Assembly (NCBI GenBank): GCA_025062375.1
Contig: JANXAG010000003.1
Coordinates: forward strand, 35,613-99,612
DNA: 64,000 nt
Source of the DNA: Anaerolineae bacterium
GTDB taxonomy: Bacteria > Chloroflexota > Anaerolineae > SpSt-600
Direction: 5' to 3'
Positions within the stretch are counted from its first letter, which is position 1, and each line of letters opens with the position of its first letter. Made by a program: the position numbers and the translations under genes. The notes beneath the pieces are model-generated. The model saw nothing but the letters and a program-made list of their open reading frames with translations. It did no database searches and was not told where the DNA came from. Positions 8,658-58,833 of this stretch are shown in pieces.

Positions 8658-8969
8658 TCACTGCCTCCTTAAGAAGGTGCTTATGGATTCCCCAAAGGCT
8701 TCAAAATCACCTGTGTTTTCCCGGACAAAATTAAGAAAGGGGCGAAAGCGCACCATCCTCACCAGGCCCCTGGCCAGGGTTTCGCCCGTGCACTCCATAT
8801 TATTGGTTGGAGCCCGATACGCCACCCTGGCAAAGGGGAAGCAAAGGTCCATCTCATAACCGAAGGCATTCAGGATCTTGGCCCGGTCCAGGTCGTTGAA
8901 GGAACCGTGGATATAGGCGAAAATGCTCTTTTCCTCTGGCTTCAGAAATTCCTTAAGCCTGGTGCGCAT
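8658..8969 (-). CDS. hypothetical 103-aa soluble protein embedded in the nuo operon between nuoK and nuoL
   Basis: ORF packed with 1-2 nt spacing to both neighbours, which suggests translational coupling. No recognisable family (MRTRLKEFLKPEEKSIFAYIHGSFNDLDRAKILNAFGYEMDL...). Confidence 0.5.
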   Translation of the reverse strand: MRTRLKEFLKPEEKSIFAYIHGSFNDLDRAKILNAFGYEMDLCFPFARVAYRAPTNNMECTGETLARGLVRMVRFRPFLNFVRENTGDFEAFGESISTFLRRQ

Positions 8970-13602: not shown

Positions 13603-13959
13603 TCACCTCCACATTAGTGCCCCTTTGCGCCAGGCATAGGCCAGTGCTACCAAGAGGATACCCAGGAAAATGAAGACATCCAGAAGGGCTACGAGGCCCA
13701 GTTTATTGTAAGCCACAGCCCAGGGCAAAAGGAAAGCTATTTCCACGTCAAAGATAGCGAAGATGAGGGCATAGAGGTAATACTGGACCCTGAACTGGAC
13801 CCAGGTTTCTCCGACGGTTTCAAGGCCGCATTCGTATATAGATTGCTTTATGGGGTTAGGCCTTTTGGGGCGGACAAGCCAGGCGAAGCCTATGCCTATT
13901 AGGGGAACAGCCAGAGCCATAAGCATTAGAAGTCCTATGAAGAGATATTGGTTCAACAA
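13603..13959 (-). CDS. nuoA: NADH-quinone oxidoreductase subunit A
   Basis: 118 aa, 3 TM, first gene of the operon. RBS AAGGAGGAG lies upstream on the minus strand. Confidence 0.85.
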
Positions 13960-14000: not shown

Positions 14001-14028
14001 ATTATATCCGTTCCGGTGAAATTGGCAA
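14001..14028 (-). promoter_or_regulatory. predicted nuo operon promoter (minus strand: TTGCCA-16-TATAAT)
   Basis: Reverse complement of 14023-14028 is TTGCCA. Reverse complement of 14001-14006 is TATAAT with a 16-nt spacer, about 40 nt upstream of the nuoA RBS. Confidence 0.45.
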
Positions 14029-14081: not shown

Positions 14082-14504
14082 GGAGCGATCAACCACCCTT
14101 TGTATCCCACCCACGAGGGCGGAAAAAAATCGGGGGATGGATGGGGGCTTCGCCTTCATCCCCGGGACTTTGAGAGTGTCCCCCAAAACCTCAAAAAGGG
14201 AGCCATCAGCCACCCCCTGCATCCCGCCCACGAGTGGGACCCTAAACCCTGGCAAACCCTATGCCCACGAGGGTGGGAAAAATTTGGGGGGTCCAGGGGG
14301 CTTGCCCCATGGCAGGGGACTTGGGGGATGTGCCCCCAGAAACCTTAAAAAGGGAGCGATCAACCATCTCTCGCATCCCGCCCACGAGTGGGACCCTAAC
14401 CGTGGCAAACCCTATGCCCACGAGGGCGGGAAAAACCGGGGGGTTGGTGGGGGCGGCCCCCCCCATCCCGGGGGTTTGGGGGTGTCCCCCAAAAACCTTA
14501 AAAG
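14082..14504. repeat. imperfect tandem repeat, three units (116 bp, 154 bp, 153 bp), G/C-tract rich with internal hairpins, between the radC 3' end and the nuo promoter
   Basis: Units start at GGAGCGATCAACCA (14082), GGAGCCATCAGCCA (14198) and GGAGCGATCAACCA (14352). Each ends in a G5-8/C5-8 hairpin followed by AAACCTTAAAAAG. The GCCCACGAG[G/T]G[G/C]G motif recurs five times. The six-frame ORFs here show repeated peptides (KPYAHEGGKN..), which are artefacts of the repeat. Confidence 0.8.
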
Positions 14505-15208
14505 GCTTCAAACCCTAAATTCTTTTCCTTCAAACTTATGAACCTCTGCTTGCCTATGATAATATGGTCCAGGACTTCAATATCTAAAAGCTTACCAGCC
14601 TGAACCACCTGACGGGTGAGGGCAATATCTTCAGGAGAGGGAGAAGGGTCTCCCGAAGGATGATTGTGCACAAGAATTATAGCCGAAGCATCAGCCTTTA
14701 TAGCTTCTCTGAAAATCTCCCCAATCCTCGCCGAAGCCATATTGAGAGCGCCCACACATATGGTGGGTATGCTTATGACCCTGTTCTTAGTGTCAAGAAG
14801 GATCGTCCTCAGATGCTCCTTGGGGAGAAAGCCCATCTCCAGAAGAAGGAGGTTAGCTGCATCGTAAGGAGAACGAATTACAGGTCTTTCCTGAGGCGAA
14901 GCCACCAAAAGCCTTTTGCCAAGCTCAAAGGCAGCTTTAAGCTGTGCAGCTTTAGCCTCCCCTACCCCTTTCTCAGCGCAAAGGTCGGAAAAATCGGCTT
15001 CAGCCAAACCTGTGAGACCTCCATATCGGGCCAGAAGGCGAGTAGCCAGTGCCAGAACGCTCTCGCCTTCCACTCCAGTCCTCAAAATTATAGCCAGAAG
15101 CTCAGCAGTAGAAAGGGAAGAAGCCCCGTAAAGCTTCAGCCTTTCCCGGGGCCTTTCCGAAGCTGGAAGTTCCTTTATAGTAGGGTGATACTCAACTTTA
15201 TTGCCCAT
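14498..15208 (-). CDS. radC: RadC-family (UPF0758) JAB/MPN-domain protein
   Basis: HhH N-terminus and the JAMM motif [14 protein letters not shown]. Confidence 0.85.
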
Positions 15209-15236: not shown

Positions 15237-16202
15237 ATGAGAAAGTGCATTCCCTTATTTCTTGCAACTTTTAGCCTGTTGAGCCTGAGCCTTGCCTGCG
15301 GGCAAATAATAACTCTTCCAACCCCCACCCCCCCAAGAGCTCCCACGAGCGACTTTACCCCTTCACCCTCGTTTGCTTTCACCCCTTCCCCCTTTACTCC
15401 TCCGCCAACCTTCACTCCTACCTTCACCCCCACCCCCATAATATACGTAGTCCAACCTGGCGACACCCTCTCAGGTATCGCCGCAAAATTCGGGGTCAGC
15501 ATCCGTATTATTCAAGAAGCCAACGCCATCACCGACCCCAAAGCCCTGCAGGCAGGCCAAACCTTGATCATACCCCAGGGGGAGGAAGCTCTGCCAGGCA
15601 CTCCAACGCCCACTCCCACTCCGATCCCTCTCAAAATAACTGGAATTAACTTTTACCGGGAGCCCGGGGGAAACCTCTGGTGCTTTGGCGAAGTCCTCAA
15701 CCCTGGTGAAGTAACTGTGGAAAGCGTAGCAGTAAGAGTCAGGCTCTATGGACCCGATAGCTCCCTCTTAGCTGAAAGCCAAACCTTTGTCGCCAGAGAT
15801 TTAATTCATCCTGGGGAAAAAGGGCCCTTTGCCGTTGTCTTCACCCAGCCCCCCGAAACTTTTTCCCATTATGATGTTACCGTGATGAGCGCATACCCTG
15901 CTCATCACCCGTCGGCCCTGGTTCATTCCCTGGTTTTAAAAGAGCACTCGTGGGAAAAAGGCCCGGGCAATTTCTTCTCCGTAAGAGGGGTTATTTTCAA
16001 TGCCGGGGAAAAAACTGTGAAAGACATAAACGTAATAATAGTGGCTTATGACATCTCCGAAAGAGTCGTGGCCCTTAACAAAATCGTGCCTGAAAAAGAA
16101 ATCCTTCAGCCAGGCGAAGAAACAACCTTCTACTTTACCTTCTTTCCTGCCAGCAACCTTCCGGTCACTTATACCCTTTACGTTCAAGGATTAACCCCCT
16201 AA
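15237..16202 (+). CDS. LysM-domain lipoprotein with a Pro/Thr-rich linker and two C-terminal beta-rich repeat domains
   Basis: Lipobox LSLAC. LysM region YVVQPGDTLSGIAAKFGVSIRIIQEANAI...GQTLIIP. Two similar roughly 100-aa C-terminal repeats. Start moved to the internal ATG at 15237 to avoid overlap with the radC start. Confidence 0.7.
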   Translation: MRKCIPLFLATFSLLSLSLACGQIITLPTPTPPRAPTSDFTPSPSFAFTPSPFTPPPTFTPTFTPTPIIYVVQPGDTLSGIAAKFGVSIRIIQEANAITDPKALQAGQTLIIPQGEEALPGTPTPTPTPIPLKITGINFYREPGGNLWCFGEVLNPGEVTVESVAVRVRLYGPDSSLLAESQTFVARDLIHPGEKGPFAVVFTQPPETFSHYDVTVMSAYPAHHPSALVHSLVLKEHSWEKGPGNFFSVRGVIFNAGEKTVKDINVIIVAYDISERVVALNKIVPEKEILQPGEETTFYFTFFPASNLPVTYTLYVQGLTP

Positions 16203-16831
16203 TCCAGCTCTTCCACTACTATTCTATCGCCCTGAACAAATGCCACCTCTGGTTTAGGAGGGCTTTCCCTGGTCTCTTCTGGGGCACGAGCAAAATATGG
16301 CCCAATCTTTATAATAGAGGGTTCCAGGCGCAGAGCATAAATCCTGCGGGATGGATCGTTTGGAGTTCCAGCAGAAGCTACCCCTTTAAGATGTCCTAAA
16401 ACGATTATATCCCCTCCCGCTACTATCTCCGCTCCAGGGTTTACGTCCCCGATAACCACAATAGAACCCTCGTATATAACCTTCTGGCCGGAACGAACGG
16501 GGCCGCGCTTTACCAGGGCAAGCTCAGTTTTTTCCTCGCGGCCTTTTTCCACCTCCAGCCCAAGGGCGTAGGCTGCCTTTCGCACCCTCTCCTCATCGCT
16601 TACAATCTTTTCTGGAAAAAGGCCATGGTTTCTCAAAATTTCCATAGCCTTGCTTAATTCATCCACCCCCATATCCGGGACTTTTATCTCTAAGACGACC
16701 TTGTTTCCTTCCAGCAAGGAACCCGCGGAGCTCAAGGTTGCTTCCAGTTCCAGAAGCACCTTTTCACTATTTCCGCCTCTGAGAACTATGACAATCCCTT
16801 CACGGGTCCCCTTTATAACCACAGCTTTCAT
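16199..16831 (-). CDS. minC: septum site-determining protein MinC
   Basis: C-terminal beta-helix signature GSIVVIGDVNPGAEIVAGGDIIVLG. Confidence 0.8.
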   Translation of the reverse strand: MKAVVIKGTREGIVIVLRGGNSEKVLLELEATLSSAGSLLEGNKVVLEIKVPDMGVDELSKAMEILRNHGLFPEKIVSDEERVRKAAYALGLEVEKGREEKTELALVKRGPVRSGQKVIYEGSIVVIGDVNPGAEIVAGGDIIVLGHLKGVASAGTPNDPSRRIYALRLEPSIIKIGPYFARAPEETRESPPKPEVAFVQGDRIVVEELD

Positions 16832-57820: not shown

Positions 57821-58833
57821 TGGCCACCTTTAATCTTTTTGATCGGGTCCTTAAAATTTTGGCACGGGATTATGTAATTTCCTTTTTGAGGCTGGCATTT
57901 CCAAACCTCAATTTTGATCTTGTAGAAACCTTGAAGAACGTGGAACTGACCTTACCTGAAAGGAGGGTGGATTTCGTCCACAAAGCCAGATTGGGGGATA
58001 AAGAATATATAGTGCATTTGGAATTCCAGTTGCGCCACGAGCGGCATTTCCCTAAGAGGATGTTTGAGTATTCTGCCCTGCTTTCTTTACAGTTTGATAG
58101 ACCTGTAATTTCCCTGGCTCTTTACCTGAAACCACGCCGGACCCCTGTTCCGCAGGAGTATACGGTTAAGGTTGGGGGAACCGTGGTTAACTGCTTTCGC
58201 TACCCTGTAATTAAACTGTGGGAACTGAAAGAAGAGATATGGGAGGGAAAATACCGGGAGCTTGCGCCTCTGCTGATCAGTCTGGTAGAAAAACCTTCGG
58301 AAGAGGTCTTGGCCCGAGAAAAAGAGCTTATCCTGGGTGAAAAGGACTCTCGCAAACGGGCTGACCTCCTGGCGGCAGCAGTAACTGTAGCCTCTCGTTA
58401 TTTCCCGAGGGATTTCCTCTGGGAGTTCTTTAAGGAGGAGATTGATGAAATGAAGAATGTCTCCTTCATTCAAGAATGGCTTGAAGAAGAACGCCGAAAA
58501 GCATTACAAACAGGGTTTCAAGCGGGCAGGGAGCAAGGCCTTCAGCAAGGCCTTCAGGAGGGCCTTCAGCAAGGCCTTCAGCAAGGCCTTCAACAGGGCC
58601 TTCAGGAGGGTCTCATCAAGGGTCTCTCCCAGGGCCGAAAGGAAGAAGCCTTAAGGGTTCTCCGCAAGATAATTCTCAAACGCTTTGGCTCTTTGCCCGA
58701 ATGGCTTGCAGAGGCACCCGATGGGTGGGAAATTGAACAATTGGAAATCCTGCTGGATTTGGCCTTAGAAATGAATACCTTGAAAGAGTTTGAATCCGAA
58801 GCCAGGAAAATTCTGGGGCTGTCTGGAGGTTAA
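57820..58833 (+). mobile_element. Rpn/YhgA-like PD-(D/E)XK recombination-promoting nuclease / putative transposase with a DUF4351-like C-terminus, inserted within the mcm operon
   Basis: D-x(n)-E-x-Q nuclease core (RVDFVHKARLG..YIVHLEFQ), a (Q/E)GLQ tetrapeptide repeat tract, and a C-terminal DUF4351-like segment. Start and stop are coupled to both flanking mcm genes. Confidence 0.65.
58534..58620 (+). repeat. 12-bp in-frame tandem repeat (CAAGGCCTTCAG-like, about 7 copies) encoding (Q/E)GLQ repeats
   Basis: GGCCTTCAGCAA/GGCCTTCAGGAG units directly visible. Coding microsatellite inside the Rpn-like gene. Confidence 0.75.

Follow-up and report, generated by a model that had tools for sequence, protein, structure and literature searches.

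The tandem array upstream of a complex I operon in an Anaerolineae genome is probably one locus of a dispersed, mosaic, hairpin-forming repeat family

Introduction

Interspersed mosaic repeats of intergenic DNA are a known kind of bacterial sequence, and the described families differ in how they are built. A REP element, the unit of the bacterial interspersed mosaic elements (BIMEs) of enterobacteria, is an imperfect palindrome of about 35–40 nt that recurs in alternating orientation. BOX elements of Streptococcus pneumoniae follow a boxA-boxB(n)-boxC plan, in which only boxB is reiterated, and are present in roughly a hundred or more copies. The MIRU-type VNTRs of mycobacteria are repeats of 46–101 bp found inside operons, always facing the same way, with small ORFs that overlap. 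MITEs are bounded by terminal inverted repeats and target-site duplications, and REPINs are inverted REP doublets served by a RAYT. A CRISPR array consists of repeats of 21–48 nt and unique spacers of similar length. The functions reported for BIMEs are generic, namely gyrase sites, attenuation of transcription and stabilisation of mRNA 3′ ends; studies of them are cited in the reference list of PMC12306157.

Here we consider a tandem array located between radC and the complex I (nuo) operon of an Anaerolineae bacterium. By the window we mean the whole stretch of DNA that was analysed, 64,000 nt in length. A sequence-only reading of the window had described the array as structured and had offered three candidate identities: a genome-specific MITE/REP-like element, an array of regulator-binding sites controlling nuo, or a structured RNA. 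Comparison with homologous loci leads us to a reading to which we assign a probability of about 0.7: the array is one locus of a REP/BIME-like family whose members are dispersed between genes, form hairpins and combine into mosaics, in a group of uncultivated Chloroflexota of the class Anaerolineae.

Results

Layout of the array between radC and nuoA

Repeat finding combined with a MAFFT register divides positions 14082–14505 into three units of 116, 154 and 154 nt arranged head to tail, matching the three imperfect units of about 116–154 bp proposed from the sequence alone. Tandem Repeats Finder reports a period of 154, with 2.2–2.6 copies and 73–80% matches, over 14110–14503. The features of the locus are as follows.

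nuoA, 13603..13959, minus strand: 118 aa; first gene of the complex I operon
nuo promoter-like site, 14001..14028, minus strand: TTGCCA-16-TATAAT, 11/12 consensus matches; 54 nt from the array edge
Unit 1 (nuoA side), 14082..14197, minus strand: 116 nt
Unit 2, 14198..14351, minus strand: full 154 nt; covariance-model score 144.1 bits
Unit 3 (radC side), 14352..14505, minus strand: full 154 nt; modules A, B and C; nhmmer E 1.6e-44
H1 hairpin of unit 3, 14478..14490, minus strand: GGGGG-ACA-CCCCC (plus strand GGGGG-TGT-CCCCC); helix 1, 89% of cells paired
H1 equivalent in unit 2, 14323–14337, read on the plus strand: GGGGG-ATGTG-CCCCC
H1 equivalent in unit 1, 14164–14182, read on the plus strand: GGGAC...GTCCC
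H2 hairpin of unit 3, 14436..14471, minus strand: varies more than any other part of the unit, with family-wide covariation in its outer pairs (helices 2 and 3)
H2 equivalents, 14292–14314 in unit 2 and 14133–14163 in unit 1, minus strand: same hairpin position
Module B core of unit 3, 14380..14428, minus strand: two GCCCACGAG copies flanking the GGGTTTGCC stem-loop (helices 4–6)
GCCCACGAG sub-motif, five copies: 14380–14392, 14416–14428, 14226–14238, 14263–14275 and 14109–14121
radC, 14498..15208, minus strand: 236 aa; Pfam RadC 6e-41; stop codon inside unit 3, overlapping the array by 7–8 nt

Unit 3 shows the modular build most clearly: module A comprises H1, H2, C-runs and a T-run, module B comprises two CTCGTGGG sub-repeats around a stem-loop, and module C is a 3′ hairpin. 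The last codon of radC and its stop codon fall within the first bases of this unit, and the overlap with the radC 3′ end noted earlier is thus real. According to the MAFFT alignment, unit 1 corresponds to a full unit in which about 38 nt separating the two CTCGTGGG sub-repeats have been lost; two other assemblies carry an identical copy. The five sub-motif copies that had been noticed from the sequence alone were recovered: with at most one mismatch, GCCCACGAGKGSG has five matches in the window, all of them within the array, against a shuffle expectation of 0.38, and none of 100 shuffles reaches five. The hairpins described at the unit ends are present as well, but their stems are 5 bp rather than 5–8 bp; likewise, each unit-end stem is followed on the plus strand by a tail, AAACCT(T/C)AAAA, which is not invariant but differs by 1–2 bases.

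G+C content is 60–65% in the array region compared with 51% for the whole window, and no second copy of the array was found elsewhere within these 64 kb. The sign of the GC skew switches at about 14 kb, which is the position of the array, and again near 54 kb. Two other tandem repeats were also noticed in the window: a C-rich repeat with a 27-nt period at 795–872, and a AGCAAGGCCTTC repeat at 58532–58634 with a 12-nt period and about six copies (periods 24 and 36 were also called), which is probably coding.

Searches against known sequence classes

Searching the window with Rfam at gathering score gave no match to the array; the sole match is a cobalamin riboswitch at 333–542 on the plus strand (60.6 bits, E 1.6e-12), just upstream of the C-rich repeat. 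With permissive E-values, the best score within the array was 21 bits against a threshold of 50, which is at chance level, and a composite array from another locus (L126) gave nothing relevant at either stringency. A CRISPR can be rejected, as had been argued from the length and irregularity of the units: the 154-nt units abut without spacers, and the sole CRISPR-DR match in Rfam scores 14 bits against a threshold of 39. We also rejected a protein-coding array, since its ORFs contain no Pfam domain and the unit lengths are not multiples of three. No tRNA or tmRNA was detected in the array, and the unit had no match among viral contigs, phage records or plasmid records. An intrinsic terminator in each unit was likewise rejected, none being detected on either strand within 14082–14505; the T-run downstream of H2 is separated from it by about 8 nt of C-rich sequence.

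The unit belongs to a dispersed and mosaic family

When species-representative genomes were scanned for its exact pattern, the unit turned up in four further MAGs labelled 'Anaerolineae bacterium', and it is also present on many JGI metagenome contigs; the other matches of the genome scan were mostly chance or unrelated palindrome arrays. One of the four MAGs has the unit on at least 14 contigs, 13 of which carry it at a contig end. The metagenome scan located at least 120 loci with the unit, and an nhmmer profile built from five seed units extended this to at least 664 units in at least 207 arrays at no fewer than 147 loci, with 1–8 units per array among the matches listed. All 207 arrays among the matches listed lie between ORFs, and long contigs have several arrays per 10–15 kb. 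In every array the units occupy one strand, head to tail, and arrays occur in either orientation relative to genes and are often found at contig ends. Copy number of one unit in the genome and its relatives had been proposed as a check, and a dispersed, high-copy family is the outcome that had been named beforehand as refuting a regulatory role.

As a side observation of the same scan, Bacteroidales (Prevotella, Parabacteroides, Porphyromonas and Bacteroides) have iteron-like tandem arrays of a 12–16 nt palindrome, ACCCCACTCGTGGGGT, spaced every 22–24 bp, on several contigs per genome. Examples are L108 1065–1200, L117 4075–4290 and L072 1093–1200, and L110, L078 and L097 are among the further genomes with such arrays. 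They have a CCCAC-TC-GTGGG core in common with the Anaerolineae unit and are otherwise unrelated to it.

Across the family, the unit is about 150 nt long and consists of module A (two G5/C5 hairpins with flanking C-runs, and a T-run), module B (a stem-loop with a conserved GGGTT(T/C)GCC, enclosed by two CCCAC..GTGGG sub-repeats) and module C, the 3′ hairpin. Arrays preferentially start at model positions of about 1, 35 and 65 and end at about 72, 112, 128 and 152. Additional modules accompany them, mostly in the same direction. Among the matches listed, module T, which contains CCCCCTTCCCT-CGC-AGGGAAGGGGG, is co-oriented with the arrays in 96 of 105 cases; module S, in which GGTCGGCGAAGGCCGACC (GGTCGGC-GAAG-GCCGACC) is followed by TTTTT and which, judged by its sequence, looks like a terminator, is co-oriented in 36 of 38. 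Module V, GGGGCGTAGCGACGCTACGCCC, is a further co-oriented hairpin. Examples of these modules are at L126 9250–9515 and L252 5780–5900, and all three are absent from the array in the window. Given the preferred start and end points and the co-oriented extra modules, the family is therefore a mosaic.

Where orthologous loci have flanks that are 96–99% identical, their arrays differ in length by about 145–610 nt (677 vs 523, 705 vs 404, 696 vs 539 and 579 vs 989 nt). The majority of these differences come close to the length of one or a few units, although some are not whole multiples. Such change of array length between near-identical strains is VNTR behaviour. Units are on average about 84% identical within an array and 80% identical between arrays, and for 78 of 282 units the best match belongs to the same array, compared with 0.7% predicted by chance; this shows some local homogenisation and no recent bursts. 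Despite the divergence of whole units (about 84% identity), blocks of the CCCACTCGTGG type are nearly invariant, which suggests constraint beyond the neutral decay of a repeat.

High copy number and dispersal are also what would be expected of a non-autonomous MITE- or REPIN-like transposable element, whose single-stranded hairpins would be copied by a transposase encoded elsewhere and whose tandem arrays would arise by insertion beside an existing copy. Two further observations point in this direction: the hairpins are strand-asymmetric (see below), and the folding strand is the G-rich strand of the flanks in 99 of 155 cases, a weak tendency. Strand bias of this kind is shown by replication-coupled ssDNA transposons (IS200/IS605). 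On the other hand, the array boundaries share neither terminal inverted repeats nor target duplications, and the ends fall at module boundaries. A tblastn search of about 1.8 Mb of array loci for a Y1 transposase, with IS608 TnpA and E. coli RAYT as probes, gave no match, which is a weak negative. No empty site was seen among the loci fetched, all of which had been chosen as occupied. Finally, species with 82% identity have arrays at orthologous positions, and the units within an array are old (84%), which speaks for persistence over recent hopping. Overall, we regard a transposable element as possible but rather unlikely. The MITE/REP-like identity proposed at the outset is supported in essence, in that the element is high-copy, dispersed and intergenic; it does not extend to a classical MITE, as neither terminal inverted repeats, target duplications nor a transposase were seen.

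Gene context of the arrays

For orientation counts, we used as reference the strand that matches the minus strand of the window (the T-strand). Among the arrays in the matches listed, 57 have a co-directional and 81 a divergent gene upstream, while 53 have a co-directional and 82 a convergent gene downstream, with all four combinations present. The orientation of arrays relative to genes is thus near random. The neighbours are diverse housekeeping proteins, and no recurrent family was found across the proteins flanking the listed arrays.

Promoter-like sites within 150 nt of arrays are mostly directed away from them (47, against 8 directed inward); inward sites were found at 4 of 112 arrays on the 5′ side and at 4 of 112 on the 3′ side. 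The layout seen in the window, with a promoter past the 3′ end of the array and directed away from it, recurs at 18 of 112 arrays and is a common configuration. The intergenic siting and the outward promoters therefore place the arrays upstream of promoters or past the ends of genes, and not in 5′ UTRs. Because the flanking promoters point outward, the arrays are also unlike independent transcription units, and we rejected the idea that they have a promoter of their own.

Folding, covariation and strand asymmetry

Single-sequence folding of the units in the window gave, on both strands, energies no better than those of shuffles (z from −0.86 to +0.22), and structure was therefore judged from homologues. 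A five-helix model was built by hand from 34 full units and comprises H1, H2 with an outer extension, a nested set of helices in module B and a two-part 3′ hairpin. The covariance model derived from it has 239 non-overlapping matches from 95 sources. In an alignment of the best 150 of these 239 matches, 88.9% of cells are paired, compared with 86.0 ± 0.2% in shuffles (none of 500 reaches the observed value) and with 38–58% when the partners are slid. Both sides have changed in 20 of 39 pairs (13.5 ± 1.9 in shuffles) and in 120 cells (37.7 ± 5.1 in shuffles). These figures come from an alignment fitted to the hand-built structure; moreover, the sequences are related, so that counting cells exaggerates how many independent events there were. 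Covariation is clearest in the outer pairs of H2 (CG 105 vs GC 36, and CG 115 vs GC 27) and in those of H1. A structure-free HMM alignment shows this signal too. RNAalifold, applied to MAFFT and covariance-model alignments, missed some of the helices, as the G/C runs contain indels.

The helices are thus supported by complementarity and by some covariation, as the comparison of homologues suggested earlier was meant to reveal. The word 'structured', which had been applied to the array from the outset, finds no backing in the window alone, where folding equals that of shuffles, and becomes justified once homologues are compared. We infer that the hairpins are kept intact either by selection or by the copying process.

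The pairs of the model are asymmetric between the strands. Read on the minus strand of the window, they include 449 G·U/U·G cells compared with 117 A·C/C·A cells; at least 5% G·U is found at ten pair positions and at least 5% A·C at three. Canonical pairs account for 88.9% on the T-strand and 83.0% on its complement. Mean single-sequence energy opposes this asymmetry, being −72.5 kcal/mol for the G-rich complement and −69.0 kcal/mol for the T-strand. The minus strand of the window, which is the sense strand of radC and nuo, is accordingly favoured, but not proven, as the folding strand. The asymmetry hints at a functional form that is single-stranded, either RNA or ssDNA, since a repeat that was merely passive double-stranded DNA would have no need of it.

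One way to interpret these data is to see in the units the genes or domains of a functional structured RNA that is transcribed from the minus strand of the window. The arrays would then be multi-copy RNA loci, and the multi-hairpin RNA could bind a protein through the GGGUU(U/C)GCC loop and CCCACUCGUGG. Covarying helices (the H2 outer pairs above all), the excess of G·U over A·C on that strand, stems that vary around near-invariant unpaired blocks, and arrays of fixed polarity with a dedicated 3′ module would all fit such an RNA. Against it stand the rarity of promoter-like sites leading into arrays, neighbouring genes that are slightly more often antisense than sense to the folding strand, and the lack of intrinsic terminators in the units of the window. 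In addition, single-sequence energies remain at shuffle level, with the complement folding slightly better on average, and the array matches no Rfam family. We therefore think a dedicated RNA distinctly unlikely.

The relevant structure might instead form on the opposite strand. The G-quadruplex potential pointed out earlier for the plus strand is correct as a property of the sequence and is kept across the family. Among the units listed, a canonical G3+N1-7 motif is present on the complement of the T-strand in 295 of 327, compared with 17 on the T-strand, and four G-tracts of at least four residues with loops of up to 20 nt occur on that complement in 281 of 327. In the window, a four-tract motif is found in units 2 and 3 and the canonical motif in unit 3; unit 1 has neither. 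A G-quadruplex on the plus strand (with an i-motif on the minus strand) could then serve as a signal for replication, transcription or recombination, and the two C-runs per unit that are conserved yet unpaired in the hairpin model would be consistent with this role. However, two of the four G-tracts coincide with arms of H1 and H2, covarying hairpins whose pairing is maintained at 89–99%; one unit of the array lacks the motif altogether, and conservation of the tracts may merely mirror the G5/C5 design of the hairpins. A quadruplex as the relevant structure consequently seems to us very doubtful.

More broadly, the units could be polar, strand-specific and clade-specific structured elements (five helices within about 150 nt, loops that hardly vary and a dedicated 3′ end module) that act as single strands, whether RNA or ssDNA. 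We consider this unlikely. If it were true, they would perhaps be cassettes kept at positions upstream of promoters or at gene ends, including nuo, that insulate or punctuate transcription in thermophilic Anaerolineae; alternatively, they would be substrates of an undescribed enzyme that recognises hairpins. Set beside these possibilities, a REP/BIME-like repeat family remains our preferred reading of the array.

The nuo promoter and its relatives

TTGCCA-16-TATAAT is the only strong promoter-like site found in the scanned region, and the 54 nt between its −35 and the array agree with the roughly 55 bp estimated before. Each full unit also contains the nuo −35 hexamer TTGCCA on the minus strand (14250–14255 and 14403–14408), within GGTTTGCCA and lacking a −10 partner.

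Such proximity makes it tempting to regard the array as the cis-regulatory region of the complex I operon, with repeated binding sites or a DNA structure tuning the nuo promoter, and several relatives seem to agree. A sister species (NuoA 92% and DNA 84% identical) has family units upstream of nuoA, on a contig that ends in the repeat. In relatives that are about 82% identical, on contigs of 1.35 and 1.57 Mb, the gap of 0.7–1.25 kb upstream of nuoA holds about 3–6 units in the same orientation plus module T, and the array abuts the promoter, ending about 25 nt from the −35 in L252. The TTGCCA hexamer within each full unit could be counted on the same side.

The remaining observations argue against a device specific to nuo. 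Family units occur at hundreds of unrelated loci and in all gene configurations. The number and arrangement of units upstream of nuoA are different in every lineage, and in the sister species the main unit is inverted (L244). Homology to the window, in relatives with an array as in those lacking one, begins at the −35 (window 14032) and not in the array. Relatives whose NuoA is 81% identical lack an array altogether and still have this promoter (TTTGCC ... TATAATATGGGAGGTT), a histidine-kinase gene being its upstream neighbour at 106 bp. The arrays upstream of nuoA are therefore old and variable, and the promoter can do without them. These comparisons give no support to a regulatory role specific to nuo, which we regard as highly improbable. 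Of the proposal that the array consists of regulator sites for nuo, a generic effect on the promoter is compatible with the data, as arrays are kept upstream of nuoA in the closer relatives; this conservation fits old inheritance and equally fits a function retained at the promoter.

Elsewhere in the operon, L251/L252 carry an MNT/HepT-type toxin-antitoxin pair (PF01909/PF18765 and PF01934; 10989–11803) between nuoK and nuoL. At the corresponding position (about 8723–8898 of the window), L002, the copy identical to the window, has a 103-aa ORF that matches no Pfam family.

The radC–nuoA junction

The junction itself differs between assemblies. In MAG GCA_033580795.1, an identical RadC is followed by about 3.5 different units and then by a convergent lysS, not by nuoA. 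An identical NuoA is found on another contig of this MAG and on a Logan contig, both of which end inside the repeat and are 100% identical to the window over their reach. The RadC and NuoA of the window have consecutive NCBI accessions and are on one 110-kb contig in one MAG, whereas they are on separate contigs in the other. In the 82% relatives, the array upstream of nuoA has a divergent tatA or HMG-CoA reductase gene as its neighbour, not radC. The adjacency of radC and nuoA was seen in none of the other assemblies compared, namely the second MAG of the same population and the 82% relatives. Since the MAGs disagree and the relatives have different neighbours, the order radC, array, nuoA may have arisen by a rearrangement through arrays in this lineage, or else by a join made across the repeat during assembly.

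The two assemblies of this population also differ in minC, which is split into two ORFs (MinC_N and MinC_C) in GCA_033580795.1 (L001 3376–4010) and is a single 210-aa ORF in the window (16199–16831); from about L001 position 3681 on, their lengths differ by 2 nt.

Discussion

If the array is one locus of a REP/BIME-like family, its units would persist as non-coding DNA and turn over by recombination or slippage between units, possibly with the help of a trans-acting enzyme that recognises the hairpins on one strand. At the locus studied here, the array would be a passenger, with the stop codon of radC on one side and the promoter of nuo on the other. The only local effects that seem plausible are generic ones: it might provide stable 3′ hairpins on radC read-through transcripts, form a spacer or a barrier ahead of the nuo promoter, or serve as a substrate for recombination and perhaps be the source of the radC–nuoA junction.

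Several consequences would follow. The repeat beside the complex I promoter would be no regulator of nuo, which removes a tempting false lead, and a REP/BIME-like mosaic repeat family would now be documented in Chloroflexota. The repeat fragments MAGs of Anaerolineae, whose contigs end in it, and may cause chimeric joins or real rearrangements such as the radC–nuoA junction. Its arrays could be used as strain markers of the VNTR type. With its long multi-helix unit, its covariation and its strand asymmetry, the family is also a reasonable system in which to test how thermophiles maintain such repeats.

A full-text literature search found no description of a repeat family of this kind in Anaerolineae or Chloroflexi. 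The family is previously undescribed, its kind is known, and in behaviour it is nearest to REP/BIME, BOX and MIRU elements. It resembles MITEs and REPINs in being short, non-coding and high-copy with hairpin potential; however, neither the terminal inverted repeats and target-site duplications of the former nor the RAYT-served inverted doublets of the latter were seen here. With the MIRU-type VNTRs of mycobacteria it shares direct tandem repeats of one family at many intergenic loci and copy numbers that differ between close strains. Unlike them, its units are about 150 nt long, non-coding, strongly structured and found in either orientation. BOX elements offer a parallel in their modular A-B-C build, in tandem sub-units that vary in number, in a predicted stable structure and in their intergenic location. 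In BOX, though, reiteration is limited to boxB, whereas here the whole A-B-C unit is repeated and modules S, T and V are added; the two families are from different phyla and have no sequence similarity.

The Anaerolineae unit differs from a REP in its length of about 150 nt, in its four to five helices and in its head-to-tail arrangement. No sequence similarity connects the two, and no RAYT gene was found in the array loci searched with the two Y1-transposase probes. In other respects they are alike: both are extragenic, high-copy and hairpin-forming, and both are built as mosaics of modules in arrays of variable length that occur in both orientations.
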